A stretch of 64,000 nucleotides of DNA from an uncultured Actinomycetota bacterium (GCA_963851085.1 CAWKNX010000003.1:261318-325317); one strand, 5' to 3'. Positions 7,551-42,794 are shown, numbered from the stretch's first letter. Numbers and translations: made by a program. The notes: generated by a model not told the origin, from the sequence alone.

Positions 7551-7776
7551 AAGCTGAAGCCTGGCGCTGCCCGCGCGGTGTCCACCAGCGCCGCGGGCCG
7601 GGTGCGCAGGTACCGGCGGCCGAGTTCGACCATCAGCCCGCTGGCTCCGGCAGCGGCAAGCTCGGCCACATACCTGGCGAGCGGGCCCGGCGTGTCGGGC
7701 AGGCCGATCCCGGTGGCAAGCGCACCTACCAGTTCGTCAGTTGGCAGCCGCTTGCGTGGCCCGGCAGACTGGTGAG

Positions 7777-20343: not shown

Positions 20344-20344
20344 G

Positions 20345-23509: not shown

Positions 23510-24817
23510 ATGCCGCCTCGCGAACTCACTCTGAGTGGTCTGCATGGCTCGCTCATGGATCCGCTGCTCGGCGCCATGACGTTCCTGAACGAGATCACGT
23601 CACGTTACCCGGACGCGATCTCGTTCGCCCCTGGCAGGCCCAACGAGGAACTGTTCGCGCACGAGCGCATCACCGAATATCTCGATGCGTACACCGCCTA
23701 TATGCAGAACGTGTGCGGCTACTCCCGGGTCCAGGTGCGCGCCGCCTTATTCCAATACGGCCGGACCAAGGGGCAGATCCATGAGCTGATAGCCCGCACG
23801 ATCGCCAATGACGAGGGCATACACGTCGCGCCTGAGGCGATCGTGATTACGGTCGGGGCCCAGGAGGGAATGCTCCTGTCCTTGCGCGCGCTCTTCGCCG
23901 GCCATGGCGATGTGCTGCTGGTGAGTTCGCCCTGTTATGTCGGCATCACCGGTGCCGCCCGGCTGCTCGATATCGAGGTCGCCGGAGTTCCAGAAGGCGC
24001 GGCGGGACCGGACGCGGCGGCAGTCCGCGCGGCAGCCAGGCGCGTCCGGGCGGCAGGCAAACGGCCGCGCGCGTTCTACGCCGTGCCGGACTGCGCGAAT
24101 CCGTCCGGGGTGAGCATGCCGCACGCCGCCCGCGCGCGACTGCTCGAGGCGGCCGCCGAGGAGGGGCTGCTCATCATCGAGGACAATCCCTACGGTTTTT
24201 TCACCAGGCAGGCGGAACCGAGTGCAACCCTCAAGTCGCTTGACCGCGACGCCACCGTCATCTACCTCGGGTCCTTTGCCAAGACCTGCTTCCCCGGCGC
24301 CAGGCTGGGCTATGTGCTCGCCGATCAGGCCGTGGTCGCGCCTGATGGTTCCCGCAGCCTGCTCGCGGACGAAATCGCGAAGATCAAGAGCATGACGACG
24401 GTCAATACGCCGTCGCTCAGCCAGGCAGTGATCGGCGGCATGCTCGTCACGAATGACTGCAGGCTCCGCGACGCGAACTCAGCGGCGATCGCCTTCTACC
24501 GCGCCAACATGACGACTTTGCTTGACGAACTCGAGCACCATTTCCCTGCACACAGGCGACCGCAGCTTGGCGTCTGCTGGAATACGCCTGGCGGCGGGTT
24601 TTTCGTCGTGGTGACCGTACCATTCCCGGCGGACGACAAGGCATTGGGCCGATCCGCCAGTGAACACGGTGTGATCTGGACGCCGATGGCATCCTTTTAC
24701 CTCGACGGGGGCGGATGCCATCAGCTCAGGCTGTCGTGCAGCTATATTTCCCGCGCCCAGGTCGTGGATGGAGCCGCGCGGCTTGCGGGCTTTATCCGCG
24801 AAGCGGCCGCAGGTTAA
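23510..24817 (+). CDS. PLP-dependent aminotransferase of the HpgT/PglE (arylglycine aminotransferase) type
   Basis: 435 aa with [37 protein letters not shown] and [29 protein letters not shown] recall this N-terminal [15 protein letters not shown] pattern from 4-hydroxyphenylglycine transaminases. The subfamily call needs a search. Confidence 0.7.
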
Positions 24818-25020
24818 TCAAGCGCGGCGAAAATGCCGTCCCACAACCGGGATCGCGCCCGCAATGCGGTGATAACCGTCTCCGCGCACGCGTCCAGCTT
24901 GGCTGTGTCGTCGCCGCACAGGTCGGCCACCATCTGCATGGCCATAGGCGTGTGCTGCTCGCCGTCGACCTCGATGTGCCGGGCCAGATAGTCACGGAAC
25001 GTAGCGAGCGTAACGTGACA
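24814..25020 (-). CDS. Small hypothetical protein (about 68 aa), start unresolved
   Basis: The C-terminal part of ORF 24814..25242 reads [65 protein letters not shown]. gggagagg precedes an ATG that is one base out of frame. No family is recognised, and it is not MbtH-like. Confidence 0.3.
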
Positions 25021-25097
25021 TAGCCTCTCCCTCGGCTCGATCTCCCGGCTCTTTGTCGCGCGCCGCACGCGGTCTGTCAACAGTGGCCAGGAATGTC

Positions 25098-26183
25098 TCA
25101 CCAGGGGAGGGCCCGGACGGCTGCCGCGTCGATGTCCGCGAGACGCGGCGTTCCAGCGAGCGCCATGACCTCGCTCAACTCGTCGCGCAGCAGCCTGAGC
25201 ACCGCGCTGACGCCCGCGGCTCCCGAGTGCGCAAGGCCCCACACCACGGGCCGCCCGACGAGGACCGCATGCGCGCCGAGAGCCAGCGCCTTGAACACAT
25301 CCGTGCCGGTACGGACACCGCCATCCACGAGGACAGGGATCCGGCCGGCCGCGGCGGCCACCACTTCAGGTAGTGCGTCAAGGCTGGCGATCGCTCCGTC
25401 AAGCTGGCGGCCGCCGTGATTCGAGACCACGACCGCGTCGATGCCGTGGTCTATCGCCAGGATTGTGTCCTCCGCCGTCGCTAGTCCCTTGAGCATGAGG
25501 GGGAGCGGCGTCTGCGCACGCAGCCAGGCCAGGTCGGCCCACGTGATGGTCGGATCGAACTCGCTGCTCGCATGGCGTTGCAGCGACGACGAGCCGGGCA
25601 CGCGCTCGTGCGCCTCGGCCATGACGGACGAGCCGACGTTAACGGCGCTGACCCCGGGCGGCAGCGTGAACCCGTTGCGGATGTCACGCAACCGCCGACC
25701 GAGGCGCGGCGCGTCGACCGTCAGCATCAGCGCCTGGCACCCGGCGGCGATGGCCCGCCGCAGCAGGGCGGCGAGCGTGTCACGCTGCCGCAGCCAGTAC
25801 ACCTGGAGCCACCATGTGCCGCCCGCGGCGGCGCCGATCTCCTCGAAAGTGCGGCTCGCGAACGTGCTCGCGATGAAAAGCGTCCCAGCGTCGCGCGCGG
25901 CCGCCGCGGCAGCGACCTCGCCGTCCGGATGGGCGAGCCGCTGAACGGCCATTGGCGCGATCACCACGGGGAAGTCAAGCGGCGCGCCGAGCAAGGTGCT
26001 GCTGAGGTCGCGTGCCGATATATCGACAAGAACCCTGGGGCGCACGATGATCCGCTTGAATGCCGCCAAATTAGCGTCAAGTGTGGACTCGGTGCCGCTG
26101 CCACCCTGGACGTAGTCCCAGACATCGTGCGGCAGCCTTGACCGCGCCGCAGTTTCAAACTCTTCCAGCCGTAGCAGTTCCAT
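25098..26183 (-). CDS. FMN-dependent alpha-hydroxy-acid oxidase (hydroxymandelate oxidase/Hmo-like)
   Basis: 361 aa with typical glycolate-oxidase-family blocks: [49 protein letters not shown]. Confidence 0.85.
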
Positions 26184-26409
26184 GCCAGTTCGCGCCTTTG
26201 CTATCCGGACCGATAGAGATCGCCTACCCTTGCCCTGCCATCACGCTGAAGATGATCGGGAGTTCTTGACCACCGTAGCCAGCGTGTGCGAATCTTGCGC
26301 CGGGTCACCCCAAACGTCGTCAAAAGCCATACGTCGTTATTAGCAGGATTCCTTACCATCTCGGTGGCACACCCGAGCCGCCAGGTGGGCATCCTGCCTG
26401 GGGGGAATA

Positions 26410-27834
26410 ATGGATCACGCTCCGCACGTGACAGCGCTGTCGCGGCCGGCCGGATGGGTCGATCAGATCCTTCTTGCGGGTAATGACGGTGATATATGCC
26501 TTTGGTTCGGCAGGCCTGTGGACCGAGGCGCGCTCCGTGACCTGGTCGCTGAGCAGCAGCGCAAGCTTGCCGCGGCGGGATTAGCCGCGGGCGGCACGGT
26601 TTCACTGCGCTTACCACCCTCGCTCGGTTATGTGGCTAGCCTGCTCGCGGCTTGGCGGATCGGCGCGCAGGTGAGCCTCCTCGATCATCGTTTGACCCAG
26701 TATGAGGTCGACCGCGCGCTCCAGCGGCTGGCACCCCAGGTGCTCGTGCAGGTCGCGGACACCGCGCCGCACGTGGTCCGCGCGATGCGCGGCTATGCCG
26801 AGGTGGTGACCGCCGCCCTGCCGCGTGCCGGTGGCCGCCCGGCCGCCACGGGCCACGCGCTCGTACAGCTCAGCTCCGGCTCGACCGGGCCTTCCAAGGT
26901 GATCGCGCGCACCGCGGGCGACCTCGTCGGGGAACTCGACCGCTACTCGGCGCTGGACGGTTACCCGCGCCAGGGTGAGCGGATCGTCTGCCTCGCGTCG
27001 GTTGTGCACGTTCTCGGCCTGGTCGGCGGCTTGCTGCACGGCCTGCACGCGGGCGTGGAGCTCGTATTCGCCGACCGGCTCATGCCTGACGGCATCCTCG
27101 CGGCGGTCGCGGCGGGCGACCGGCCCACGATGATCCTCGGCGTGCCGTTCCACGCCGAGCTGCTGACCTCGGTTGCCGCGCCGCCACCGCTCCCGCAGCT
27201 CGCGCGCATGGTCGTCGCGGGTGAACTGGTACGGCCGCACGTGCCAGGTGCCTTCACCGCCCGCTATGGCGTGCCGCTCGGGACCATGTACGGGATGACC
27301 GAGCTCGGGGTCATCGCCACCGATCTGCACGGCCGCCATCACCCGGCCGTCGCGCCCGCGCCGGGCATGGCCCTGCGGGTGGAGGCAGGAGAACTGCTCG
27401 TGGCGATGGCCGCCTCGCCCTACATCGGCCTGGTCGATCCGACCCGCTGGTCGGACGGCTGGCTGCACACCAGGGACGCCGCGGCCGCCGATCCAGCGAC
27501 CGGCCTGGTGACGATCCTCGGCAGGCTCGATTCGCAGGTGTCCATCGGCGGGCTCAAGGTCGACCTCACCGAGGTGGAGCAGAGCCTGGCGGCGCTGCCC
27601 GAGGTCACCGAGGTGGTCGTGGTCTACGACGACGTGATCAGGGCCTACCTCGCACTGCGCGACGGCGCGGCGGTGGCCGGCGTCGAGCGCGCCATCACCG
27701 AGCAGCTCGCGGCCTTCAAGCGGCCCCGTGACCTCCATGTGCTGCCGAGTCTGCCACGTACGGCCAGCGGCAAGATCGTTCGCGACCGTGCGGTGCTCTG
27801 CCTTCTCGCTGACGGCGAGTCGGTGGCCCGGTGA
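26410..27834 (+). CDS. Stand-alone AMP-dependent synthetase/ligase (short, 474 aa)
   Basis: Adenylation cores are LSSGSTGPSKVI, MYGMTELG, GWLHTRDAA and LPRTASGKIVR. Confidence 0.85.
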   Translation: MDHAPHVTALSRPAGWVDQILLAGNDGDICLWFGRPVDRGALRDLVAEQQRKLAAAGLAAGGTVSLRLPPSLGYVASLLAAWRIGAQVSLLDHRLTQYEVDRALQRLAPQVLVQVADTAPHVVRAMRGYAEVVTAALPRAGGRPAATGHALVQLSSGSTGPSKVIARTAGDLVGELDRYSALDGYPRQGERIVCLASVVHVLGLVGGLLHGLHAGVELVFADRLMPDGILAAVAAGDRPTMILGVPFHAELLTSVAAPPPLPQLARMVVAGELVRPHVPGAFTARYGVPLGTMYGMTELGVIATDLHGRHHPAVAPAPGMALRVEAGELLVAMAASPYIGLVDPTRWSDGWLHTRDAAAADPATGLVTILGRLDSQVSIGGLKVDLTEVEQSLAALPEVTEVVVVYDDVIRAYLALRDGAAVAGVERAITEQLAAFKRPRDLHVLPSLPRTASGKIVRDRAVLCLLADGESVAR

Positions 27835-28013
27835 ACCATCGCGCGGCGCGGGGGGGAGCCCCGCGGGCCGGCGGCGCCGCGCCCCCCGTCCGTGCGCAGC
27901 CTCGTCCGGTCATCCGCTGTTCGGGCCGCATGTGCCCGCCATGCGCAGCGAACGCACTTCGGCCCCGGCCGGCCAGGCTCGGGTCCCGCACCGATGGAAA
28001 GGAAGCCAAGCAG

Positions 28014-28292
28014 ATGCGTGAAGACAAGGACGTGGTCTGCCAGTTCGTCGTCGATTCCCTGCAGAAGATGAACTACGACGTCAGCGACGTCACTCCGGAC
28101 ACCGACCTGGGCCCGGCGGGTCTCGATCTCGAATCGCTGGCACTCGCCGAGCTCGCGATCCAGATCGAGGATGAGTTCGGCGTGCGGTTCGGCGACGACG
28201 ATACCGAGACACTCGCGCTCATGACTCTCGACGAGTTCGGCGCCGAGGTCGCCAGGCGTCTCGCTGCGGAGCCCGCGGCCAGGGCCGAGTGA
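28014..28292 (+). CDS. Acyl carrier protein 1
   Basis: ATG at 28014 follows ggaaaggaag. The phosphopantetheine-site context is DLGPAGLDLESLALAELAIQIEDEFGV. A longer GTG start at 27831 is possible, but the leader contains a REP-like palindrome. Confidence 0.8.
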   Translation: MREDKDVVCQFVVDSLQKMNYDVSDVTPDTDLGPAGLDLESLALAELAIQIEDEFGVRFGDDDTETLALMTLDEFGAEVARRLAAEPAARAE

Positions 28293-28582
28293 GCCCCATG
28301 CCCGCGCTCGATCGTGGCCAGGTCATCGCCCTGCTGGCGACGTTCGGCGACCGCGCGCCCGATGCGGTCGCGGACCAGATCAGCTCGCTGGAACTGACGT
28401 GGCTGATCGCTCAGATCGAGCAGCAATACGGCATCGTGCTCGACTTCAGCGACGATGTGCTTGCGGGAATGTCGACGGTCTCAGGTGCCACGGCGACGCT
28501 GCGCGCCGCGATCGCGGACGCGGATACACCGGCAGGTACACCGGCGGGGACCGAGGCCGATGCGCAGGCGCGGCATGGCTGA
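28289..28582 (+). CDS. Carrier protein 2 (ACP/PCP-like)
   Basis: GTG at 28289 overlaps the ACP1 stop (GTGA). The candidate Ser motif is ADQISSLELTWLIAQIEQQYGIVL, about 40 aa from the N-terminus. Confidence 0.55.
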   Translation: MSPMPALDRGQVIALLATFGDRAPDAVADQISSLELTWLIAQIEQQYGIVLDFSDDVLAGMSTVSGATATLRAAIADADTPAGTPAGTEADAQARHG

Positions 28583-29864
28583 CGAGCAGGCCGGCGGCGG
28601 CGCCGCGCGCGATGGGCCGCCCGCGCGCGATGGGCCGCCCGCGCGGGACGGACCGGCCGGGCGCGATGAGCCGGCCGCGGGCGCACGCGTGGTGCTTGCC
28701 CGAAACGCCGCGGCGCGCGAGATGGCGGTCCGCGGTTCGCCCGCGCACGTGCCTGTGGCCCGGGACGAGGCAGTGCTGACGGGCATGGGAGCCATGTCGG
28801 CGTTCGGCCGGGGGACCGGTCCGCTTTTCGACCGCGTGTCCGTGGGCACGCCCGCCTTCGCTGAGGTCACCCGGTTCGACGTCGCGCAGCGCCGCGTCAA
28901 GGCAGCCGCTCATGCTCCCGGTTCGCCCGAGCTCGCCGCCGAACTGGTGTCAGTCATCGAAGACGCGTGTGCCGACGCGGCGTGGGCACCGGACCAGCGC
29001 GCCGGCTGTCCCCTGCTGCTCGCCGCACACGCCGACCCGTCGGTCACCGGGAACCCGGAGACTCCCGGCCTCGGGCTTGCCGTGGCCGAGCGGTGCGGGC
29101 TGCGCGCCGGACCGCGCGTCTACACGGCGGCGTGCGTGGCCGCGAGTACCGCGGTAGCGGACGCGGCGACCATGATCACCTCTGGCCGCCTCGATCGCGT
29201 GGTGGTGGCGGCGGGTTATCTCGTGGATCCGGGGAACTTCGCGGTCTTCGACGCCGGCCGCGCTCTCGCGAAGGACGGCCGCGTCCGGCCCTTCAGCGCC
29301 CGGCGGCGGGGCATGCTGCTCGGCGACGGGGTTGCCGCGGTGGTGCTCGAGTCGGGGCGGGCCGCGCGCGGCCGGGGCGCGGACGTGCTCGCGAGGGTCG
29401 CCGGCTGGGGGCGTGCCGGTGACGCCTACCACGTCTGCCAGCCCAGGCCGGACGGGGCCGGGCTCGCGAGTGCGGTGCGATCCGCATTCCGGCGCGCCGG
29501 TGTAGCGCCTGCCGAGGTGGGATACGTCAACGCGAACGGCACCGGCACGCCGCAAAGTGACGCGGCGGAGGCGGCCGCGCTGCACCGCGCCTTCGGCGAG
29601 TGCATCGGCGGGGTCCCGGTCAGCTCGACCAAGTCGGTGCACGGCCACGCGCTGGAGGCGTCGGCGCTGCTTGAACTCGTCGTGACGGTGCTCGCCCTTC
29701 GCAGCGGCCTGCTGCCGGTCAACGCCGGCTTCCTGGAGCCTGACGCGGACTGTGAACTCGATCTTGTCCTCGACACGCCGCGTGCGGCCCTGCCGCGATA
29801 TGCGATGAGCGTCAACTTCGCCTTCGGCGGAGCCAACACGGCGTTGCTTGTGGGCGCGGGATGA
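28575..29864 (+). CDS. Beta-ketoacyl synthase (KAS I/II fold, Cys-His-His present)
   Basis: ATG at 28575 overlaps the carrier-protein-2 stop. Active-site contexts are YTAACVAASTAV, GDAYHVCQP and STKSVHGHALEAS. The C-terminus is FAFGGANTALLV. The N-terminus carries an ARDGPP x4 repeat. Confidence 0.85.
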   Translation: MADEQAGGGAARDGPPARDGPPARDGPAGRDEPAAGARVVLARNAAAREMAVRGSPAHVPVARDEAVLTGMGAMSAFGRGTGPLFDRVSVGTPAFAEVTRFDVAQRRVKAAAHAPGSPELAAELVSVIEDACADAAWAPDQRAGCPLLLAAHADPSVTGNPETPGLGLAVAERCGLRAGPRVYTAACVAASTAVADAATMITSGRLDRVVVAAGYLVDPGNFAVFDAGRALAKDGRVRPFSARRRGMLLGDGVAAVVLESGRAARGRGADVLARVAGWGRAGDAYHVCQPRPDGAGLASAVRSAFRRAGVAPAEVGYVNANGTGTPQSDAAEAAALHRAFGECIGGVPVSSTKSVHGHALEASALLELVVTVLALRSGLLPVNAGFLEPDADCELDLVLDTPRAALPRYAMSVNFAFGGANTALLVGAG

Positions 29865-30628
29865 GCCCGCGGCCCTCGGCCGGATGCGTGGCCAGCGAAC
29901 GGGACGCCGCCGCGGGCCGCGGGGTGAATATGCCAGGCGTTCCGGGCGAGCCCGGCTCGCCAGCCGGTCCGGATACCTCAAGGGCTCCGCACGTGCCGGG
30001 GCCTTCGGGTGTTCAAGCCGCTCTGGGCCCGTCGAGTGATCCCGGTGCGCCCGCCGGCGAGGGCCCCACGCAGGACCTGGCCATTCTCGCGCGTGCTCGC
30101 TGGCCGGAGCGGCCTGGCGACACCCTGACACCGATACCCGCATTCGTCGCGTCGTCGTTCAGCCCACTGGTGGCCGAGGTCGCGGACCGGTGCCTTCGTG
30201 CCTGCTACGGAACGCCTCCGGCCGAGCCCGCACGTGGCAGGAGAACCGCGATCGTGCTCGCGAGCAGGCACGGCGACGTGGGCACGTCCGCTGCCGTGGC
30301 GCAGGCTCTCGCCGAGCGCCGCCGCGTTCCACCGCTGCTGTTCTTCCAGTCGAACGTCAACGCGGTGATCGGCCATGTGGCGGCGCGCTGGGGCCTGGCG
30401 GGCCCCATCGTGTGCACCTGCCCGACTGGCGATCTGATCGCCGATGGGCTGGCGTGTGCCGCGTTGCTGTTCGAGGACGGTGACGCCAGCGAGGCGCTCG
30501 TCATTGCCGCCGACCAGGGATATGGCGGCGAATCCGACAGCGCGGCCGCGGTTCTGGCGGCCGCGTGGACGCGGCGGCCCGGCGCCTGGTCCCCCGGCGG
30601 CCAGCAGGAGGCAGGAGGAGTCACATGA
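29861..30628 (+). CDS. Small KS-N-terminal-like partner (chain-length-factor-like, no catalytic triad)
   Basis: The 255 aa, ATGA-coupled to the KS, read FVASSFSPLVAEVADRCL, PPLLFFQSNVNAVIGHVAARWGLAGPIV and ALVIAADQ. This resembles Ketoacyl-synt_2 / ApeC / Iga12-type CLFs from memory. It has a Pro-rich N-terminal extension. Confidence 0.5.
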   Translation: MSPRPSAGCVASERDAAAGRGVNMPGVPGEPGSPAGPDTSRAPHVPGPSGVQAALGPSSDPGAPAGEGPTQDLAILARARWPERPGDTLTPIPAFVASSFSPLVAEVADRCLRACYGTPPAEPARGRRTAIVLASRHGDVGTSAAVAQALAERRRVPPLLFFQSNVNAVIGHVAARWGLAGPIVCTCPTGDLIADGLACAALLFEDGDASEALVIAADQGYGGESDSAAAVLAAAWTRRPGAWSPGGQQEAGGVT

Positions 30629-32247
30629 AGGTCCCGAGCATGCGCGCGGCACTCGCGGCCGATGCCGAGATCGGCGCGGGCAACGTGGTCAGCATCCGGA
30701 TGGCAGGTGGCGCCGGTCTCGACGACCCGGTCGTCACGTTCGACAGCGATGTCGACGGCTCACCCGCCTGGCAGCCGCTGACGGTGCGGCAACTCGACCG
30801 GATGGCCGCGGCGCGCGCCGCGGCGCTGCACGGCCTTGGCATCGGGATGCGTGACCCGGTCGCGGTCATCGCTCCTACCGCTGCCGACACCGCGCTGGCC
30901 TTCCTCGGCCTCACCCGCCTCGGCGCGATCCCGGCGTTGATCAATCCATATCTGCCCACCGAACTCGCCGCGGAGTACATCCGCCGCCTCGGCGCGGTGG
31001 GGCTGATCACCGACGCGGCGCACGCGGAGCAGTTGTCCTCCCACGGCATCGCCACCCCGCGGCTTCCCGACGTCTCGGGCCTTGGCCGCGGCGATCCGGA
31101 AAGCTCTCCGCCCCCCTACAGGTATTACCCCACCGACCCGGTGGCGATCACGCATTCTTCGGGCACGACCGGCCTGCCCAAGGCGGTCGTGCACTCGCAT
31201 GGCAGCCTGTTCGCCGCGATCAGGTACCGGCTGCGACTGCCGAGACCGCAAGGTACCGAGCGGATGCTGAGTGCCCTGCCGTGCCCGCACGCGGCGGGCC
31301 TGATCGTGCTCAACCTCGCGCTGTGCAACGGCGGGCAGATGCTCATGCTGTCCAGGCAGACAGGGCCGAGCGTGCTCGACGCGATCGAACGGTGGCGGCA
31401 GGCCTGCGTGGTCGGATTCTCCACCACCTGGCCGGACCTGGTGAAGGCGGATCTGTCCCAGCGCGATCTGGATTGCGTGGCCCTGTGGTGGAACACCGGC
31501 GACTGCGCCCACGAGGCGCACATCCGGCGGCTGATCGGGCATGGCTCAAGGGACACGGTCACGTCGGCTGGCCGGGTGCGGCAGCCGGGCTCGGTGTTCG
31601 TCGACGGCCTCGGCTCCAGCGAGATGGGGCACTCGCACTTCCACATCGCCCATACCCAGGACTCGAACCGGTACGGCCGGTGTATCGGGCGCGCCCACTC
31701 GTTCGCCGACGCGCGGGTCTTCGGGCCGGACGGCGAGGAACTGCCGCCCGGCGAGGTGGGAGAGCTCGGCACGAGTTCTCCCACGGTTTCGCTCGGCTAC
31801 TGGAACGACTCGGCCACCACCTACCGGACCCGGATCCGCGGCTATTTCCTTACCGGGGATCTGGTCTATCGCGATGAGGAAGGCTACTTCTACCACCTGG
31901 ACAGGAAGGCCGACTCGGTCGATCTCGGCGGCGGCGCGCGCCTCTACACGGCAGCGTCAGAGGAACGGATCCTCGCGCGCTGCCCCGACGTTCTCGACTG
32001 CACGGTCGTGGCGGTTTCCGAGGGTGGGCGGGTGGTCACCGACGTGCTTCTCCAGCTCGATCCGGCGGCGGTCGCCGCCGGGCCGGTCGATCGCACCGAG
32101 CAGGTGCGCGCCGCGCTCGACGAGCGCGTCGCCGCCACGGTACGCCATGTCATACCTGTCGACGACGGCAACATCCCGCTGACTGCGACCGGCAAGGTCC
32201 GCAAGTTCGTGCTGCGGCAGCGCCACCTGGCGGAAGCGTCACGATGA
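30625..32247 (+). CDS. AMP-dependent synthetase/ligase (540 aa)
   Basis: ATG at 30625 overlaps the previous stop (ATGA). Adenylation cores are ITHSSGTTGLPKAV, GSSEMG, YFLTGDLVYRD and TATGKVRK. Confidence 0.85.
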   Translation: MKVPSMRAALAADAEIGAGNVVSIRMAGGAGLDDPVVTFDSDVDGSPAWQPLTVRQLDRMAAARAAALHGLGIGMRDPVAVIAPTAADTALAFLGLTRLGAIPALINPYLPTELAAEYIRRLGAVGLITDAAHAEQLSSHGIATPRLPDVSGLGRGDPESSPPPYRYYPTDPVAITHSSGTTGLPKAVVHSHGSLFAAIRYRLRLPRPQGTERMLSALPCPHAAGLIVLNLALCNGGQMLMLSRQTGPSVLDAIERWRQACVVGFSTTWPDLVKADLSQRDLDCVALWWNTGDCAHEAHIRRLIGHGSRDTVTSAGRVRQPGSVFVDGLGSSEMGHSHFHIAHTQDSNRYGRCIGRAHSFADARVFGPDGEELPPGEVGELGTSSPTVSLGYWNDSATTYRTRIRGYFLTGDLVYRDEEGYFYHLDRKADSVDLGGGARLYTAASEERILARCPDVLDCTVVAVSEGGRVVTDVLLQLDPAAVAAGPVDRTEQVRAALDERVAATVRHVIPVDDGNIPLTATGKVRKFVLRQRHLAEASR

Positions 32248-33530
32248 GCTGGCCAGGGGGGGACTGCGCCGCCGTTACGGGAATCGGCCTTGTCACCCCG
32301 CTCGGCCGCGACACCGGCGAGTTCTTCGACGCGGTCTGCGCGGGCCGCTCCGGCCTCCGCGCACCGCCGGAGAAGCATCCGGTCGCGGAAACGCTCGAGG
32401 TGGTGGGGATCGCGCCGGAAATCGATGCCGCGTCGCTGCTCCCGCCGACCGAGCTGCGATGCGTCGACCGTTTCGTCCTGCTTGCCCTCGCCGCCGCGAC
32501 GGATGCGCTCGCGGACGCGGGAATCGAAGCCGGGCGCGACGTCGACCCGTACCGGATCGCGGTGATCGCCGCCACCGGCGGTGGCGGCCTCGAGACGTTC
32601 GAGGAGTATTCCCACTCGCGTTTCCAGCGCGGGCGCCCCGCCGTGAGCGCGTATCTGCTGCCGGGGATGCTGTCCAACATGGCGACCGCGCGGATCGCCA
32701 TCAAGCATCAGATCCAGGGCTACAGTACGGCGATCGTCACGGCCTGCGCGGCGGGTGCCCAGGCGATCGCGGAAGGCCTGCGTCTCATCCGCGATGGTGA
32801 AGCCGACGTCGTCATCTGCGGGGGCGCCGAGTCGCCCCTGCATCCGACCATCGCCGCCGCTTTCGCCAACGCGCGGGCGCTGGCCCGTGGATGGGCAGAT
32901 CCCACGGCGGCGAGCAGGCCTTTCGACCGTGGCCGCAACGGCTTCGTGCTCGCGGAAGGCGCTTGCATGTTCGTGCTTGAGCGTGCCGCGTTCGCGCAGG
33001 CACGCGGCGCGGCAGCGTACGCCGACCTGATCGGCTGGGGGGCGACGACCGACGCCCATCACCCGACGATGCCCCGTCCGGACGGTGCCGGCGCGGCCGA
33101 GTGCATGCGCAGGGCAATTGCCGGCGCGGGCCTGGGCCCAGCCGACGTCGGCTACGTGAACGCGCACGCGACGAGCACCAAGCGTGGTGATGCCGCCGAG
33201 GCGGCCGCCATCCGCTCCGTCTTCGGCGCCCACCGGCCGGCGGTCAGCTCGATCAAGGGGGTGACCGGCCATCTCCTTGGCGCCTCAGGCGCCGTCGAGG
33301 CCGCCGCGACGGCGCTCGCGGTTGGCCGCGGCGTCCTGCCGCCCACGCACAACCTCACCGATCCCGATCCGGCGTGCGACCTTGACCACGTGCGCGCAGC
33401 GGCCAGGACAGGTCAGGTGCACGCCGCCCTGTCGAATTCCTTCGCCTTCGGTGGCCACAACCTCAGCCTGCTTTTCGGCCGGTCAGGCACCAGCCCGAGC
33501 CGCACGACCACCGCACGAGGTGCACGATGA
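32244..33530 (+). CDS. Beta-ketoacyl-ACP synthase II (FabF-like)
   Basis: Active-site contexts are IVTACAAGAQAI, TDAHHPTMP and SIKGVTGHLLGASG. The C-terminus is NSFAFGGHNLSLLF. Both start and stop overlap the neighbouring genes. Confidence 0.9.
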   Translation: MSWPGGDCAAVTGIGLVTPLGRDTGEFFDAVCAGRSGLRAPPEKHPVAETLEVVGIAPEIDAASLLPPTELRCVDRFVLLALAAATDALADAGIEAGRDVDPYRIAVIAATGGGGLETFEEYSHSRFQRGRPAVSAYLLPGMLSNMATARIAIKHQIQGYSTAIVTACAAGAQAIAEGLRLIRDGEADVVICGGAESPLHPTIAAAFANARALARGWADPTAASRPFDRGRNGFVLAEGACMFVLERAAFAQARGAAAYADLIGWGATTDAHHPTMPRPDGAGAAECMRRAIAGAGLGPADVGYVNAHATSTKRGDAAEAAAIRSVFGAHRPAVSSIKGVTGHLLGASGAVEAAATALAVGRGVLPPTHNLTDPDPACDLDHVRAAARTGQVHAALSNSFAFGGHNLSLLFGRSGTSPSRTTTARGAR

Positions 33531-35007
33531 CCATTCAGGGGATCGACCACCTGGAGTTCTATGTCGCCGACGCGCGGCAGGCCGCTGGCCAGTTATGTGA
33601 TGCCTACGGTTTCCGCGTGCACGGCGAGGGTAGCCCGCGCACCGGGCTGGCGGGCCAGCGGTCGGTGCTCGTCCGGCTGCGGGATATCCGCATCCTGCTC
33701 ACCTCCGGTCTTTCCGCCGATCACCCGGCCGTCAGGTATGTGCGCAGGCACGGCGACGGCGTGGCGGTCATCGCGTTAGCCACCGATGACGCGCACGCTG
33801 CGTTCGCCGAGGCGTTACGGCGGGGTGCCGATCCGGTGGCCGACCCGGTCGTATACGAGCGTGGCGTCAGCCGCACGACGTTCGCCTCGGTGTCAGCGTT
33901 CGGCGACGTCGCCCACAGGTTCGTTCAGCGGCTCGGGCCCGATGACGACTTCGCGCCCGGCGTCATCCGGCGGCAGTCGCTAGGCAGTGCCGCCCCGGGG
34001 GAGCGACCCCCCGGGATCCCCCCGCAGGAGCCGTTGCCGCATCCGCGGCAGTCGCTAGGCAGTGCCGCCCCGGGGGGACGACCCCCGGGATCCCCCCGCA
34101 GGAGCCGTTGCCGCATCCGCGGCAGTCGCTAGGCAGTGCCGCCCCGGGGGAGCGACCCCCCGGGATCCCCCCGCAGGAGCCGTTGCCGCATCCGCGGCAG
34201 TCGCTAGGCAGTGCCGCCCCGGGGGGACGGCCCCCCGGGATCCCCCCGCAGGAGCCGTTGCCGCATCCGCGGCAGTCGTTAAGGATCATGGAGGGTCACC
34301 ACGGCGGACCCGGAGACGAGGATCGGTCGGACGCCCCGGCCGACCGCGATGACGTCCTCGAGGTGATCGACCACATCGCCGCCTGCGTGCCCGCGGGAAC
34401 GCTCGGCGCGGTGGCCGGTGCCTACGGCGACATCTTCGGCTTCTCCCAGATCTTCGCAGAGCGCATCGAGGTCGGCGGCCAGGCGATGGACTCGAGGGTG
34501 GTGCAGAGCCCGTCAGCCGGGGTGACGCTGACCCTGCTGGAGCCCGCCGGAAGCGGGGATCCGGGTCAGATCGACGAATTCCTGCTGTCGCACGGCGGCC
34601 CCGGAGTGCAGCACGTGGCGTTCCGCACGCCAGGTATCGCCGAGGCGGTGCGGATCCTGGAAAAGCGCGGCGTGCGGTTCCTTGCCACCCCGCCCGCATA
34701 CTACGACGCGCTCGAACGCCGGCTTGGCGCGGCGGAGCTTCCGGTGCAGGAACTCCGGGACCTCAATGTGCTCGCTGACCGCGACCCGTGGGGGCTGATG
34801 TTCCAGATCTTCACCCAGTCGGTGCACCCGAGGCGGACTCTCTTCTTCGAGCTGATCGAGCGACGGGGCGCGCTCACGTTCGGCAGCGGGAACATTCGTG
34901 CCCTTTATGAGGCGGTCGCACGTGAGCACGCTGCCGCCGGGCCCCCGCAGGCCGGACCGCCGCCCGCCCCCGGCCAGGGATCCGGCGGCGCGCCGGCTGA
35001 TTCGTGA
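33527..35007 (+). CDS. 4-hydroxyphenylpyruvate dioxygenase family enzyme (HmaS/HPPD-like) with a 4 x 25-aa tandem insertion between its two domains; one frame break inside the repeat
   Basis: The N-domain is IQGIDHLEFYVADARQAAGQL..GDGVAVIAL. The C-domain is VIDHIAACVP..GVQHVAFRT..LADRD..GLMFQIFTQ..FFELIERRG..GFGSGNIRALYEAV. The two halves lie in frames 2 and 1 because one of the four repeat units is 74 nt rather than 75 nt. Confidence 0.8.
33971..34275. repeat. Tandem array, about 4 units of 75 bp, each containing a family-A palindromic core
   Basis: Unit starts (cggcagtcgctagg) at 33971, 34046, 34120, 34195 and 34270, giving periods of 75, 74, 75 and 75. The unit is cggcagtcgctaggcagtgccgccccgggggg(a)cgacccccgggatccccccgcaggagccgttgccgcatccg. 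It encodes RQSLGSAAPG(E/G)RPPGIPPQEPLPHP. Confidence 0.9.
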
Positions 35008-35960
35008 TGCGGCACGGACCGCCGCCTGGGAGGCAGATCATGTCCACGTCGTTCAGGCCCGCGGAGGCGTTCATGCTGACGGCCGGCGAGCGCGGCTTGC
35101 TGCCATCAGACGCCGACGTCCAGTGGTACGCGGAACACGGCTGGTATCTGTCCAAACGGCTGCTCACCGACGAGGAGACCGAGACGCTGCACACCGCGAG
35201 CGAGCGGTACTACGCGGGTCAGCGTGACCGCGTGTTACCGCGGCGGCCACCGAACCTCGCCTACTGGCAGCCGTCACACGGGCAGGTCCAGCGGCACAAC
35301 GACTACGTTCACTACGAAAGCGACGAACTCGCGCGTATTCTCCGCAAGCCGCTCATCGGGGCGGTCGCCGCACGGCTGGCGGGAAGCAGCGAGACCAGGA
35401 TCTTCCAGGCGACGCTCATCTACAAGCCGCCGCTGCGGGACGAGCAGACGAACCTCGTGCCGTGGCACGCCGACCGGCACTACTGGCAGACCTGCACATC
35501 CGAGCGGATGCTGACCGCTTTCATCCCGTTCCACGACTGCGGCGAGGACATGGGCACGATCACGATGATCGACGGGAGTCACCGGTGGAAGGAGCCGCCG
35601 GGCGGAGACGACTCCACCCGCCACTTCGCGCAGCGTGACCGCGGCGAGCTCGAGGCCCTGCTCGCCGAGACGGCACGCTTCAACGGGGCCGAGGTGGTGC
35701 AGACCCCGATGGTGATCCCGAAGGGCCATATGAGCTTCCATCACTGCCGGATCTACCACGGCAGCGGGGCGAACGTGAGTGGCCGCCCACGGCGCAGCGT
35801 GTCACTGCACATGCAGGACGGCGAGAACCAGTGGCGGCGCTACCTCCGCCCGGACGGCGGCACCCTCGTCTACAACAACGACGTCCTCGTCCGCAGGACG
35901 AGCGGCGGCACGCCGGACTACGCCGACCCCGTGTACTGCCCAGTGACATGGAGGGCTTAG
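35004..35960 (+). CDS. Phytanoyl-CoA dioxygenase (PhyH) family Fe(II)/2-oxoglutarate oxygenase
   Basis: 318 aa with the HxD context LVPWHADRHYW, a distal His in FHHCRIYHGSGAN and an Arg in RRSVSLH. The start overlaps the previous stop. Confidence 0.75.
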   Translation: MMRHGPPPGRQIMSTSFRPAEAFMLTAGERGLLPSDADVQWYAEHGWYLSKRLLTDEETETLHTASERYYAGQRDRVLPRRPPNLAYWQPSHGQVQRHNDYVHYESDELARILRKPLIGAVAARLAGSSETRIFQATLIYKPPLRDEQTNLVPWHADRHYWQTCTSERMLTAFIPFHDCGEDMGTITMIDGSHRWKEPPGGDDSTRHFAQRDRGELEALLAETARFNGAEVVQTPMVIPKGHMSFHHCRIYHGSGANVSGRPRRSVSLHMQDGENQWRRYLRPDGGTLVYNNDVLVRRTSGGTPDYADPVYCPVTWRA

Positions 35961-35962
35961 CC

Positions 35963-36934
35963 GTGCCGCAGGCGGCGAGCGAGCTCTACCGGACGATGCG
36001 GCTGATCCGCAGCTTCGAGGAACGGGCGCTGCAACTGGTGAAGTCGGGCGACATCGTCGGTGGCACCCATCCGTACATCGGCCAGGAGGCGGTCGCCACC
36101 GGTGTCTGCGCGGCGCTGCGCGGCGATGACCTCATCACGGGAACGCACCGCGGTCATGGGCACGTTCTCGCCAAGGGCGGCGATCCACGGCGCGTGCTCG
36201 CCGAGCTCGCGGGCAAGGAGACCGGGCTCAACCGTGGCCGTGGCGGCTCGATGCACGCCGCCGACCTCGGGCTGGGCATCCTGGGTGCCAACGCGATCGT
36301 GGGTGCCGCCGCCCCGATCAGCGTCGGTGCCGCGTGGTCGGCGCGCCGGACGGGCAGCGGCCAGGTGGTGGCGACCTTCTTCGGCGACGGCGCGCTCAAC
36401 CAGGGCGTGCTGCTCGAGGCGATGAACCTGGCCTCGCTGTGGAGCCTGCCCGTCCTGTTCGTGTGCGAGAACAACGGCTACGCGACCACGATGCCGTTCG
36501 CGACCTCGGTGGCAGGGACCGCGGCCGGCCGCGCGGAGGCGTTCGGCATCACGGCGCGGTCGGTCGACGGGATGGACGTCGAGCAGGTCCGGGACGCGGC
36601 GGCCGACATGGTCTCCCGCGCCCGTGGCGGGCAGGGCCCGGGCTTCCTCGAGTGCATGACCTATCGGTTCGGCCCGCATCACACGATGGAGTACCGGCTC
36701 AAGCTCTCCTACCGCTCCGCGGCCGAGATAGCACGGTGGAAGGAGCGTGACCCGCTCGACATCGAGGGAGCCAGGCTCGCCGCAGGGGACAGGGAGCGGA
36801 TCGACGAGGAGGTCGCGGCGGTCATCGATGCGGCGGCCGAGTTCGCGCGCTCGAGCCCATCGCCGGATCCGGCGGGCGCGCTCGACTTTCTCTATGCCAG
36901 CGGCCTGCGGCCCCGGGCGGGGGGAGCCGCCTGA
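35963..36934 (+). CDS. TPP-dependent 2-oxoacid dehydrogenase E1 alpha subunit
   Basis: GTG at 35963 lies 7 nt after ggaggg (alternative ATG at 35948). Motifs are YRTMRLIRSFEERA, GTHRGHGH, GGSMH and FFGDGALNQGVLLEAMNLASLWSLPVLFVCENNGYA. Confidence 0.85.
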   Translation: MPQAASELYRTMRLIRSFEERALQLVKSGDIVGGTHPYIGQEAVATGVCAALRGDDLITGTHRGHGHVLAKGGDPRRVLAELAGKETGLNRGRGGSMHAADLGLGILGANAIVGAAAPISVGAAWSARRTGSGQVVATFFGDGALNQGVLLEAMNLASLWSLPVLFVCENNGYATTMPFATSVAGTAAGRAEAFGITARSVDGMDVEQVRDAAADMVSRARGGQGPGFLECMTYRFGPHHTMEYRLKLSYRSAAEIARWKERDPLDIEGARLAAGDRERIDEEVAAVIDAAAEFARSSPSPDPAGALDFLYASGLRPRAGGAA

Positions 36935-37896
36935 TGACCTGGCTGTCGTATGCGAAGGCGCTCAACCGGGCGCTGGGTGACGAGATGGCGCGCGACCCGG
37001 CAGTCTGCGTGTTCGGCGAGGACGTCCAGGCCGGGATCGCCGGGCTGACGTTGGGGCTGCACAAGCGTTTCGGCGGCGACCGCATCGTCGACATGCCCCT
37101 GTCGGAGCAGGCGTTCACCAGCATGGCCACCGGCGCGGCCATGACGGGGACGCGGCCGGTAATCGAATTCCAGATACCTTCGCTGCTTTTCCTGGTTTTC
37201 GAGCAGATCGCCAACCATGCGCACAAGTTTTCATTGATGACTGGCGGCCAGGTAGCGGTCCCTGTCACGTACATCGTGCCGGGATCGGGTTCGCGGATGG
37301 GATGGGCAGGCCAGCACTCCGACCATCCGTACAGCCTTTTTGCCCACGTAGGAGTCAAGACGGTTGTCCCCTCGATGCCGTCCGACGTCTATGGCCTGCT
37401 CGTATCCGCGATCCGCGACGAAGATCCGACCGTGATATTCGCTCCCACCGGTGCGATGGGAGTGCGCGAGGACATTACCTCCGAGCTCGTGGCTGTCCCG
37501 CTCGGCTCGGCGCGAATTCACCGGGGCGGGTCTGATGTCACCGTTGTCGCGGTCGGGCATCTCGTCCACGACGCGCTTGCGGTCGCGGCGGAAATCGCCG
37601 GCGACGTGTCGCTGGAAATCTTCGACCCGCGCACGCTGTACCCCTTCGACTGGGACGCGCTCATGTCGTCGTTGCGCAAGACCCGGCGCCTGGTAGTGAT
37701 CGATGACTCCAACAGGTATTGCGGCTTCGGCGCTGAGGTGATCGCGACTGTCGCGGAGGAACTGCAACTGATCGCGCCGCCCAAGCGGGTGACCCGGCCG
37801 GACGGCGCCGTGCTGCCCTTCGCGCTGGAACTCGACCGGGCTGTTCAGCCGAGCCGAGATCAGCTCGTGGCCGCGATCAGGGCGGTCATGAAGTAG
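36934..37896 (+). CDS. 2-oxoacid dehydrogenase E1 beta subunit
   Basis: The ATG overlaps the alpha-subunit TGA by 1 nt. Motifs are ALNRALGDEMARDPAVCVFGEDV, DMPLSEQAFTSMATGAAMTGTRPVIEFQ and a C-terminal transketolase-C-like part. Confidence 0.9.
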   Translation: MTWLSYAKALNRALGDEMARDPAVCVFGEDVQAGIAGLTLGLHKRFGGDRIVDMPLSEQAFTSMATGAAMTGTRPVIEFQIPSLLFLVFEQIANHAHKFSLMTGGQVAVPVTYIVPGSGSRMGWAGQHSDHPYSLFAHVGVKTVVPSMPSDVYGLLVSAIRDEDPTVIFAPTGAMGVREDITSELVAVPLGSARIHRGGSDVTVVAVGHLVHDALAVAAEIAGDVSLEIFDPRTLYPFDWDALMSSLRKTRRLVVIDDSNRYCGFGAEVIATVAEELQLIAPPKRVTRPDGAVLPFALELDRAVQPSRDQLVAAIRAVMK

Positions 37897-37952
37897 CTGT
37901 TCCCGCGGCCTGACAGACTGGCCCGGACAGCGTCGTCCCCGAGGAGGTCTCC

Positions 37953-38981
37953 ATGCTGCCGTGGTCGGCTGAACTTGCCGGGCGAATCGACCGGCAGGTG
38001 ATCGCCAGCGAGGCGCTGCGGGGCAATCCGCTCGGGGATCCGGCGCAGCGTCCGCTGTGGGTGCAGCTGCCACCTGGTTACGACGACGATCCCGCGCGCC
38101 GCTTTCCCTCCGTCTACGTGCTTCAGGGCTACACCGGTCATCTGTCGATGTGGGCGAACAGGCCAGCATACGGCCAGCCATTCCCCGAACTGGCCGACGA
38201 GGTGTTCGCGAGCGGGCAGGCACCCCCGGCGATCGTGGTGTACGTGGACGCGTGGACGGCCTACGGCGGCAGCCAGTTCGTCGACTCGGCAGGCACCGGG
38301 CGCTATCACACGTACCTGTGCGACGAGGTCGTCCCGTGGGTCGACGCCAGGTACCGCACGCTCGCGGGCCGTGACCATCGCGCGATCAGCGGCAAGTCGA
38401 GTGGCGGCTTCGGTGCGATGATCACGCCGATGCTGCGGCCGGACCTTTTCTCTGCGCTGGCCACGCACGCTGGCGATTCGCTGTACGAGATGTGCTACAT
38501 CCCGGGTCTGGCCACGGCGGTTCGGCACTTGCGCGATTACGACGGGGACATCATGGCTTGGTGGGCGGATTTCCGCTCCCGCCCGAACCTCCAGAAGGAC
38601 GGCGATCTGGATCTGCTGATGCTCCTTGGCGTTTCCGCCTGCTTCTCGGCCGGCGACGACGGCGTGCCCGAGCTGCCGATGGAGCCGGACACGGGCGTAC
38701 TGCGCGAGGGCGTCTGGCAGCGCTGGCTGGACTGGGATCCGGTCCGTATGGTGCCCGCGCACGCGGGCGCACTCCGCTCCATGCGCGCGATCTGGATCGA
38801 CGCCGGCACCAGGGACGACTTCTTCCTCGACTTGGGCGCCGCAGCGTTCCGGCAGGCGCTGGCCAATGCCGGCGTGCGGGACGACGCTATTGCTTTCGAG
38901 CTGTTCGACGGCAAGCACGGCGGTATCGGTTACCGGTATCCGATGGCGCTCGCCTGGCTCTGTGAGCGGATAGCGGCATAA
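37953..38981 (+). CDS. Putative esterase family (PF00756-like) alpha/beta hydrolase
   Basis: It has FPSVYVLQGYTG, the nucleophile elbow ISGKSSGGFGAM and C-terminal FELFDGKHG. Confidence 0.7.
   Translation: MLPWSAELAGRIDRQVIASEALRGNPLGDPAQRPLWVQLPPGYDDDPARRFPSVYVLQGYTGHLSMWANRPAYGQPFPELADEVFASGQAPPAIVVYVDAWTAYGGSQFVDSAGTGRYHTYLCDEVVPWVDARYRTLAGRDHRAISGKSSGGFGAMITPMLRPDLFSALATHAGDSLYEMCYIPGLATAVRHLRDYDGDIMAWWADFRSRPNLQKDGDLDLLMLLGVSACFSAGDDGVPELPMEPDTGVLREGVWQRWLDWDPVRMVPAHAGALRSMRAIWIDAGTRDDFFLDLGAAAFRQALANAGVRDDAIAFELFDGKHGGIGYRYPMALAWLCERIAA

Positions 38982-40343: not shown

Positions 40344-42794
<2,451 letters not shown>

Follow-up and report, generated by a model that had tools for sequence, protein, structure and literature searches.

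The closest described relatives of the system reported here are the ava cluster for avenalumic acid and the cma cluster for p-coumaric acid, from Streptomyces sp. RI-77 and Kutzneria albida, which join a type II polyketide synthase (PKS) of the highly reducing kind to an ATP-dependent diazotase (PMC10777205). Their published gene order is A1 ligase, A2 and A3 acyl carrier proteins (ACPs), A4 ketosynthase (KS), A5 chain length factor (CLF) and A6 diazotase; about half of the ava-like clusters lack nitrite-forming genes (PMC10777205). The DNA analysed here, called the window throughout, is a stretch of 64,000 nucleotides from an uncultured Actinomycetota bacterium (GCA_963851085.1 CAWKNX010000003.1:261318-325317). 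Its segment from about 19.6 to 39.0 kb is a single member of a conserved, uncharacterised actinobacterial biosynthetic cluster family, and contains the same six homologous genes in the same order: ligase, ACP, ACP, KS, CLF-like protein and an enzyme of the nitrite-activating diazotase family, named DZ in this work. Cassettes that link a type II PKS to a diazotase are already known; what is new here is the exchange of the precursor and tailoring module and the altered KS. The probable product is an aryl polyketide that is N-N-bonded (or diazo-processed), and not a plain aryl polyene.

Gene families were assigned by Pfam and NCBIfam scans of the open reading frames (ORFs) of the window, and gene starts were refined against orthologues, which placed the start of the first KS at about 28575 and not at 28455 and likewise changed the spans of ACP1, ACP2 and PhyH. 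Every gene listed in an earlier note on this DNA was found at or near the position given there and, ACP2 excepted, passed its family model. The genes from the ligase to the distal esterase are the following:

26410-27834, plus strand, A1, acyl/aryl-acid:carrier-protein ligase, AvaA1/CmaA1 homologue (AMP-binding and AMP-binding_C)
28014-28292, plus strand, ACP1, in the AvaA2-like position (PP-binding, 25 bits, cut-off 20.8)
28298-28582, plus strand, ACP2, divergent carrier protein in the AvaA3-like position (profile-profile match to ACP1)
28575-29864, plus strand, KS with a Cys-Asn-His active site (ketoacyl-synt and Ketoacyl-synt_C)
29861-30628, plus strand, small CLF-like partner (PF13723, 34 bits, cut-off 25)
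30625-32247, plus strand, DZ, of the ATP-dependent nitrite-activating ANL enzyme family (NCBIfam AvaA6 model, 467 bits)
32244-33530, plus strand, FabF-type KS, canonical Cys-His-His (TIGR03150, 439 bits)
33527-35007, plus strand, HmaS-type non-heme-iron dioxygenase (TIGR01263, 95 and 232 bits on two halves)
35040-35960, plus strand, PhyH-family Fe(II)/2-oxoglutarate oxygenase (PF05721, 78 bits)
35948-36934, plus strand, E1 alpha, thiamine diphosphate (ThDP)-dependent 2-oxoacid dehydrogenase/decarboxylase subunit (E1_dh, 218 bits)
36934-37896, plus strand, E1 beta (Transket_pyr and Transketolase_C)
37953-38981, plus strand, PF00756 esterase, candidate releasing hydrolase (PF00756, 75 bits)

Comparison with two cma-type loci, one of Goodfellowiella (L020) and one of a Kutzneria metagenome-assembled genome (MAG; L022), gave protein identities of 46% for A1, 46-48% for the KS and 41-42% for DZ. 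Since the order and the identities of A1, KS and A6 are shared with both loci, the A1-A6 cassette is homologous as a unit. The earlier note had seen the closest logic in the Gram-negative aryl-polyene (Ape) and aurachin systems; the nearest relatives are instead the actinobacterial avaA1-A6/cmaA1-A6 cassettes, with the same gene order and 41-48% identity. As in ava/cma, no dehydratase is encoded in the window cluster, and the residues of the CmaA6 nitrite site are kept in DZ. The differences from ava/cma include the genes around the cassette. The L022 locus carries LysR, a CmaG-like FMN reductase, a DHQS-II synthase for 3,4-aminohydroxybenzoic acid (AHBA), and CmaB-like and CmaA7-like genes. 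The window is without AvaH/AvaI (3,4-AHBA synthase), AvaB, the AvaA7 reductase, the CmaG/AvaA8 reductase and the nitrite-forming genes, and adds a FabF-type KS, an HmaS-type dioxygenase, PhyH and E1 alpha/beta. A tblastn search with the AHBA synthase, CmaB-like and CmaA7-like proteins of L022 found nothing in the window or in the 16 related loci of the family described below, no CmaG homologue was found by tblastn in the window or in the family members among 21 loci searched, and PF01959 had no match in the scans of the window. The divergently transcribed FMN oxidase upstream of A1 was considered as a counterpart of CmaG and rejected, as CmaG-like proteins are PF03358 FMN reductases. Within the cassette itself, Asn replaces the first catalytic His of the first KS, and Gln201 and Asn225 of CmaA6 are replaced in DZ. 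Published mining for ava-like clusters used homologues of AvaH/AvaI as a criterion (PMC10777205) and would therefore not have captured the present family.

DZ had previously been read as a second, acyl-loading ligase. Its sequence places it in the CreM/AvaA6/CmaA6/Tri17 family, whose members are ATP- and nitrite-dependent diazotases and N-nitrosylases, with the corresponding predicted activity, and it is for this reason that N-N bond chemistry was missed before. Among the NCBIfam models, DZ scores 467 bits with that of AvaA6 (3-aminoavenalumate diazotase) and 160 with the next family, which is the best ligase model. Its PDB matches are CmaA6 (382 bits), Tri17 (318) and a third relative (240), followed at 112 bits by feruloyl- and fatty-acyl-CoA ligases. 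Since the equivalog cut-off of the AvaA6 model is 975 bits and the identity to CmaA6 is 43%, DZ is a member of the family and not an orthologue of AvaA6. In CmaA6, His224, Phe267 and Lys533 form the nitrite site and are essential by mutagenesis, and Phe267 is proposed to hold nitrite in place by steric hindrance (PMC12207350). The equivalent residues of DZ, H222, F265 and K524, are invariant in 23 of 23 sequences (the window and 22 relatives), and the position of Phe267 is Val in the one ordinary ligase aligned, feruloyl-CoA synthetase 8wev. Replacement of the substrate-contact residues Gln201 and Asn225 extends throughout the family, the substrate of which thus differs from aminocoumarate. 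Conservation of Arg204 was also considered, as a sign of a carboxylate-bearing substrate, and discarded as non-discriminating, as Tri17 has Arg and the Micromonospora and Kribbella members have Leu. Two close DZ homologues carry the JGI label 3-aminoavenalumate diazotase, and homologues of DZ fill over 120 database clusters with identities of at least 64%.

In a neighbour-joining tree the DZ proteins of the family are monophyletic and fall into two subclades. Subclade A includes the Streptosporangiaceae, Kitasatospora, Streptacidiphilus and Solihabitans members and carries the aminotransferase, oxidase and esterase set, and subclade B includes Micromonospora, Kribbella and Catellatospora, with a HamA-like oxygenase between PhyH and E1 alpha. 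Proteins with weak ATP-grasp likeness are encoded in the Kribbella locus as well, and Micromonospora has an unassigned ORF of similar size in the same position. The sister lineage of the whole clade is L018, a locus of Streptomyces sp. NPDC020096 (JBEYJY010000009.1) whose DZ is 50% identical; this closest outgroup has A1-ACP-KS-CLF-DZ and a CmaB-like gene. Its cassette adjoins CreE-like and CreD-like nitrite genes, a class-II DAHP synthase, a class-III aminotransferase, UbiD and a phosphopantetheinyl transferase, and may represent a spinamycin-like or a new aminoaryl polyene cluster. Because this sister lineage carries CreE-like and CreD-like genes beside its cassette, nitrite chemistry is supported for the clade as a whole. 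As a separate observation, a diazotase-family protein (36% identity) lies beside a DHQS-II/CmaH-like gene (43% identity) in the Bacteroidota member Nibrella saemangeumensis (L021, about 7364-10656), and judging from these similarities the combination of AHBA and diazotase chemistry may reach beyond Actinomycetota.

These data bear directly on the model of the earlier note, a type II KS/CLF system of aryl-polyene-like character, with two ANL enzymes that both serve as acyl or aryl ligases and without any N-N chemistry. Both ANL proteins do match AMP-binding, no nitrite-forming genes are present in the window or the related loci, and DZ falls below the AvaA6 equivalog cut-off; in aurachin biosynthesis, two ligases load a single starter. 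We nevertheless regard this model as improbable, given that the scores of DZ with diazotases and Tri17 are three times those with any acyl ligase, and that DZ keeps the equivalents of Phe267, His224 and Lys533, sits exactly at the A6 position of ava/cma and has a sister clade linked to CreE/CreD genes. The hallmarks of Ape are also absent. Gram-negative Ape clusters combine a ligase, two ACPs and KS/CLF with a ketoreductase (KR), a paired hot-dog dehydratase (DH), glycosyl- and acyltransferases and export genes. With these the window has the PF13723 partner and the two ACPs in common, but the KR, the DH pair, the acyltransferases and the export genes are absent from the window cluster, none of its ORFs matched adh_short/KR or a hot-dog DH, and ava/cma cassettes hold much closer homologues.

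The locus had been presented as an orphan cluster. It is not unique to this genome but part of a large conserved family, for which 16 related loci were examined by gene tables and tblastn. A genome scan with a P-loop pattern, in which 16 of the 80 loci listed were relevant and the rest were mostly ordinary ligases, also recovered the cma-type loci. The 16 family loci are found in Kitasatospora, Streptacidiphilus, Solihabitans, Micromonospora, Catellatospora, Kribbella and Streptosporangiaceae MAGs; an intact example is the locus of Kitasatospora sp. NBC_00240 (JAPEMU010000001.1, 8857945-8879564). Across these roughly seven actinobacterial lineages the block A1-ACP-ACP-KS-CLF-DZ-FabF-HmaS-PhyH is invariant. 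The FabF-type KS directly follows DZ in all 15 complete related loci, and PhyH is present in 15 of the 15 loci that reach its position. E1 alpha/beta is complete in 13 of the 16, is absent from the complete locus L006 and is represented by a partial E1 alpha at the truncated end of L014. The HmaS, PhyH, E1 alpha/beta, PKS and DZ genes form one same-strand series of overlapping or abutting genes, with several 4-bp overlaps. Other genes are variable: the HamA-like heme-oxygenase-like oxygenase occurs in nine of the 16 loci, at two different positions relative to the operon, the aminotransferase and the HSL esterase in eight, always together, and the FMN oxidase in six. The HmaS-like protein, PhyH, the FabF-like KS and usually E1 alpha/beta are core components, and the oxidase, aminotransferase and esterase are accessory. 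Literature on the gene combination or its parts, with subscription-only publications outside our reach, yielded no characterised member of the family, in agreement with the previous statement that the locus matches no characterised pathway.

ACP1 was recognised by its Pfam model, and its motif GLDLESL is conserved in 18 loci. ACP2 had no match in Pfam or NCBIfam, so that of the two carrier proteins proposed earlier only the first passed its model; the profile of 16 ACP2 orthologues does match that of ACP1 (hhalign probability 80%, E 1.3e-5), and the invariant Ser in the G-S-L/M-E-L motif of ACP2 aligns with the phosphopantetheine Ser of ACP1. The first KS has the motifs TAACVAAS, NANGTGT and KSVHGH, kept in six aligned orthologues and three further family loci. 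The second of these motifs is NAN[G/A]TGT in nine of nine family sequences read (including L003-L008, L013 and L015) and NAHGTGT in L018, L020 and L022. This KS is also without the N-terminal segment of about 30 residues that FabF has, and judging from these features it could act in transfer or chain-joining. The FabF-type KS has the motifs TACAAG, NAHATST and KGVTGH. The CLF-like partner, for which a search with PF13723 had been suggested and gave a match, has no active-site Cys and a low-complexity N-terminus, and has orthologues in all complete related loci. Its N-terminal extension (29861-30115) is rich in Pro, Gly and Ala, and no tandem repeat was detected in it. At the N-terminus of the first KS there is an in-frame 18-bp tandem repeat (28603-28683, ARDGPP).

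Upstream of A1 lie seven further genes, in part on the opposite strand, most of them accessory or damaged:

17228-19459, minus strand, fused E1 alpha-beta (ThDP) protein (E1_dh, Transket_pyr and Transketolase_C)
19597-20330, plus strand, SGNH/GDSL hydrolase, accessory (Lipase_GDSL_2, 56 bits)
20650-22283, plus strand, O-methyltransferase, interrupted (Dimerisation and Methyltransf_2 domains)
22547-23506, plus strand, HSL-type esterase, accessory (Abhydrolase_3, 256 bits; NCBIfam LipP1 family, 398 bits, cut-off 350)
23510-24817, plus strand, class-I (KAT/AadAT-like) pyridoxal phosphate aminotransferase (PF00155, 78 bits)
24817-25008, minus strand, remnant of a HamA-like heme-oxygenase-like oxygenase, C-terminal 64 residues (tblastn of intact relatives)
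25098-26183, minus strand, FMN-dependent (S)-2-hydroxyacid oxidase, Hmo-like, accessory (PF01070, 444 bits)

Homologues of the SGNH hydrolase (56-75% identity) adjoin the block in L005, L008, L009, L012, L016 and L017. For the fused E1 the related loci gave only paralogous matches of about 30%, to their own E1a/E1b genes, which places it outside the conserved family block, and its membership in the cluster is uncertain.

As claimed in the earlier note, an HmaS-type dioxygenase, a 2-hydroxyacid oxidase and a class-I aminotransferase are joined in this locus to a ligase, two carriers and a KS/CLF system. The HmaS-like protein scores 224 bits with HmaS (PDB 2r5v) versus 156 bits with 4-hydroxyphenylpyruvate dioxygenase (HPPD; 1t47), the closest protein being HmaS of A. 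orientalis. The HmaS-type signature, which we take to be Thr214, Ile216, Ile335 and Tyr339 versus Pro, Asn, Phe and Phe in the HPPD type, is read as T-L-L-E-P and N-I-R-A-L-Y, with three of the four HmaS positions identical and the fourth changed from Ile to Leu; the His, His and Glu metal ligands are kept. The best PDB matches of the FMN oxidase are L-lactate oxidase (363-387 bits), glycolate oxidase (334 bits) and 4-hydroxymandelate oxidase (321 bits), and those of the aminotransferase are archaeal KAT and aminoadipate aminotransferases; an HpgT-like role of the latter is possible on this sequence basis. Of the HmaS/Hmo/HpgT set named earlier, the HmaS-type signature thus holds, while the oxidase is not specifically Hmo-like and both oxidase and aminotransferase are accessory. 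PhyH had only weak PDB matches (SnoN, PhyH and SnoK), E1 alpha carries the ThDP motif GDG...NN, and orthologues of E1 beta share 69-95% identity. The PF00756 esterase is found only in the window and in its closest relative, L005 (87% identity).

Two pathways to arylglycines resemble this gene set. The 4-hydroxyphenylglycine (Hpg) pathway of glycopeptide and CDA clusters uses HmaS, Hmo and HpgT, to which the HmaS signature, the 2-hydroxyacid oxidase and the class-I aminotransferase of the window correspond; it differs in that here the genes are embedded in a PKS/diazotase operon without any nonribosomal peptide synthetase (NRPS), and that oxidase and aminotransferase are absent from half of the family. 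The pglA-E genes of the pristinamycin cluster, of which PglB/C are the E1-like proteins of the phenylglycine pathway, proceed from arylpyruvate through an arylacetyl-thioester and arylglyoxylate to arylglycine. The window has E1 alpha/beta without E2/E3 beside an oxygenase, a hydrolase and an aminotransferase, a likeness in the kinds of enzymes that is set by their descriptions; again the window differs by having no NRPS. On these grounds the HmaS, oxidase and aminotransferase genes, together with E1 and PhyH, could be a precursor-supply island that feeds hydroxyphenylglycine or phenylglycine to an NRPS elsewhere, next to an unrelated PKS. The HmaS-type signature, the presence of a class-I aminotransferase, an oxidase as near to Hmo as to glycolate oxidase and E1 subunits that resemble PglB/C in kind would all fit. 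Against this, HmaS, PhyH and E1 stand in one series with the PKS genes and DZ, in a block that does not vary across the 16 loci, and the oxidase and aminotransferase are the dispensable parts. The cluster is also NRPS-less, as described before: the window has no NRPS-sized ORF, and in the relatives with annotation, L003 and L005-L007, the gene calls within 10 kb include no NRPS. We consider a supply island very unlikely.

We favour, with somewhat better than even confidence, a diverged ava/cma cassette in which DZ carries out N-N chemistry on an alpha-oxidised aryl acid that is extended by the type II PKS. The protein families, a homologous and collinear cassette and a conserved set of core genes are established, and from these we infer the following scheme. 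An aromatic 2-oxo acid such as 4-hydroxyphenylpyruvate would be oxidised at its alpha carbon. HmaS would convert the arylpyruvate to a mandelate, the FMN oxidase the mandelate to an arylglyoxylate and the aminotransferase the latter to an arylglycine; with tyrosine as donor, 4-hydroxyphenylpyruvate would be regenerated as in the Hpg pathway. E1 alpha/beta and PhyH may provide a parallel or further route, by one-carbon shortening and alpha-hydroxylation. The resulting aryl acid would be loaded by A1 onto ACP2, and its transfer and extension with malonyl-ACP1 would fall to the FabF-type KS and to the pair of Cys-Asn-His KS and CLF-like partner, the reductive steps being possibly borrowed from fatty-acid synthesis as in ava/cma and triacsin. 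DZ would make AMP-nitrite and join it to an N-nucleophile in the intermediate, either an amine or some other, giving an N-N bond (diazo or N-nitroso) that may either be kept or be used as a leaving group, and the esterase would release the product. That an aryl acid is loaded onto a carrier protein and then extended had already been put forward in the earlier note, and this idea remains reasonable.

A number of observations weigh against this scheme. CreE and CreD homologues were found neither in the window nor in the 16 family loci by tblastn with the L018 proteins, and the cluster encodes no gene for an aromatic-amine precursor and no KR, DH or AvaA7-type enzyme. Characterised ANL diazotases act on an aromatic amine or a hydrazone and not on an alpha-amine. 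Arylglycine cannot be the universal nucleophile, because aminotransferase and oxidase are missing from the 10-kb flanks of half of the family. The score of DZ below the AvaA6 cut-off and the replacement of Gln201 and Asn225 belong here as well. Finally, the window copy may not make the full product, because its HamA-like oxygenase is truncated and its O-methyltransferase is interrupted.

An alternative is a transient diazo group, as in ava/cma. The ligase would then load an aromatic amine from primary metabolism or from elsewhere, e.g. p-aminobenzoate or aminohydroxybenzoate, the KS enzymes would extend it, and DZ would diazotise the ring amine for its replacement or removal, while HmaS, PhyH and E1 would serve only in tailoring or in making another building block. 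The A1 ligases of the outgroups L018, L020 and L022, which belong to AHBA-type clusters or clusters linked to the aspartate-nitrosuccinate (ANS) pathway, share 46-54% identity with the A1 of the window, and the weak best PDB matches of A1 include the aryl-acid ligases 4-chlorobenzoate and benzoate CoA ligase. All characterised relatives of DZ diazotise aromatic amines, and half of the family has no aminotransferase nearby. On the other hand, homologues of AvaH/AvaI, AvaB and AvaA7 are missing from the window and the family loci, the residues by which CmaA6 contacts its substrate are changed, and no role is left for the four core genes (FabF, HmaS, PhyH and E1 alpha/beta) that replace the AHBA genes. 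The transient diazo group, taken jointly with such a subordinate role of HmaS, PhyH and E1, appears rather unlikely to us.

The favoured scheme, i.e. alpha oxidation followed by N-N chemistry, has partial parallels in other described systems. In triacsin biosynthesis Tri29 is the ligase, Tri30 and Tri20 are the ACPs, Tri13 is the transfer KS, Tri6/7 the KS/CLF pair and Tri17 the N-nitrosylase. The logic is alike, as a nitrogen-bearing starter is brought by a ligase to an ACP, transferred by a KS to a second ACP and extended by KS/CLF, and an ANL enzyme of the CreM family adds the nitrite nitrogen; both systems have three KS-type proteins and two ACPs. The window differs in having no hydrazine genes (Tri26-28), no Tri16/21 nitrite genes and no KR or DH, and in a starter chemistry based on an aromatic 2-oxo acid. 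In cispentacin biosynthesis AmcH loads a 2-oxo acid onto an ACP for a KS with a small partner, and the arrangement of ligase, ACP and KS with a small non-catalytic partner is shared with the cispentacin/coronafacic acid systems (AmcH, AmcB and AmcF-AmcG). NCBIfam matches to AmcF, AmcG and AmcB are weak and all below their equivalog cut-offs (for the CLF-like partner and AmcG 34 bits versus 80), the window has no AmcE-type hot-dog decarboxylase, and the starter would be aromatic and not 2-oxoglutarate. In fragin biosynthesis HamA oxidises a carrier-bound alpha-amino acid en route to the N-N bond of the diazeniumdiolate. The HamA_HO-like protein encoded in nine related loci hints, by analogy, at N-oxidation of a carrier-bound amino acid; in the window only the 64-residue remnant is present, and there is neither HamC nor a HamD-type NRPS. 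A further possibility is an N-N aryl class of a kind not yet described, in which DZ would act on the benzylic alpha-amine of a carrier-bound or extended arylglycine, or on its form N-oxidised by a HamA-type enzyme, to give an alpha-diazo carbonyl or a diazeniumdiolate, with the Cys-Asn-His KS transferring or joining chains and FabF elongating them. We keep this as a tentative option of low probability.

The state of the window copy raises the question of decay, in which case it would make nothing or only a truncated product. The tblastn search with the intact HamA-like proteins of L005 and L003 matched residues 197-260 only (94% and 78% identity), so that the first 196 residues or so are lost; the stop codon of FMN_dh is 90 bp away. 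The O-methyltransferase named in the earlier note is indeed present, in two pieces: its N-terminal part is encoded at 20650-21513 and its C-terminal part at 22089-22283 in another frame, and the intact O-methyltransferase of L005 is split accordingly by tblastn into residues 2-287 and 305-369. The interruption of about 575 bp (21514-22088) consists of low-complexity DNA rich in Asp, Gly and Ala codons, with tandem repeats at 21725-22069. The SGNH hydrolase, repeat and O-methyltransferase can also be read as one open frame of 994 codons without a stop. The HmaS-like gene, identified before as HmaS/HPPD-like and now assigned to the HmaS type by residue alignment, has a frameshift of 1 nucleotide that had been overlooked: it is split into 33527-34132 and 34108-35007 near 34085, within a 75-bp tandem repeat in the interdomain linker. 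The second repeat copy has C5 where the other copies have C6, and loss of a single C from a C6 run in one repeat copy is what assembly errors typically produce. Such an error, or slippage, is therefore the likeliest cause, and a pseudogene was rejected as the likeliest reading of the split gene.

The truncation of the HamA-like gene and the interruption of the O-methyltransferase are larger lesions and may be real, and together with the HmaS frameshift they are what speaks for decay. However, the nine core genes and E1 alpha/beta are otherwise of full length, with 78-95% protein identity to L005, both damaged genes are dispensable elsewhere, being absent from several family members, and an independent short-read contig is identical to 31486-33999, i.e. 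up to the start of the repeat. Decay of the whole locus is in our view a fairly unlikely explanation. A sibling metagenome contig (L001, ENA ERZ25039489 contig_80079) aligns to 26189-34133 with 95.7% identity and 48 gapped positions and has a split KS; it comes either from a related strain or from an error-rich assembly of the same population. Because of these gaps and the split KS, single-base indels in such metagenome data need caution.

Repeats are found in several places of the window. A family of 69-75-bp tandem repeats with the core GGGACGACCCCCCGGAACCCCCC (nine matches, with none expected by chance) occupies 20332-20615 (minus) and 33964-34278 (plus), with a single copy at 16818-16841. 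The first array lies between the SGNH hydrolase and O-methyltransferase genes, and the second is in frame in the HmaS linker, where it encodes an insert rich in Pro and Gly; the HmaS orthologue of L005 has a similar repeated linker (PGGRPPGIPPQESMPHPRQ). An in-frame repeat of 21-bp units is also present at the N-terminus of a major facilitator (MFS) transporter (40711-40809). The repeats in the KS and the MFS transporter and the low-complexity CLF extension, together with the 75-bp repeats, suggest a genome-wide tolerance of repeat expansion within coding sequence.

The flanks of the cluster were described as ordinary genes, and the scans agree: they encode class-III aminotransferases, aldehyde dehydrogenases, a two-component system, an MFS pump, diacylglycerol kinase and glycerol-3-phosphate dehydrogenase. 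Neither a KR, a DH nor a cyclase was seen among the ORFs scanned across the window, as also stated before. Between 1532 and 12532, pairs of a class-III aminotransferase and an aldehyde dehydrogenase recur (1532-3091 with 3377-5257, and 8003-9112 with 9109-10680), with an amino-acid permease between the two pairs and an aminotransferase fragment at 12029-12532.

ATP-dependent diazotases and N-nitrosylases are few and recently discovered, and there is demand for them as biocatalysts in diazo, azide and hydrazine chemistry. To our knowledge, every characterised enzyme of this kind adjoins genes for an aromatic amine or a hydrazine, usually together with a nitrite-forming pair. The family described here represents a monophyletic branch of DZ that has become fixed in a new context, with the alpha-oxidation enzymes HmaS, PhyH and E1, an extra FabF and an altered KS triad, and without a visible source of amine or nitrite. 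It is a large sister family which mining for ava-like clusters by AvaH/AvaI misses, and its members occur in seven or more actinobacterial lineages, many of which are in culture (strains of Kitasatospora, Micromonospora and Kribbella). What a conserved enzyme that forms N-N bonds acts on, and what a common cluster makes, can thus be tested directly in cultured strains.

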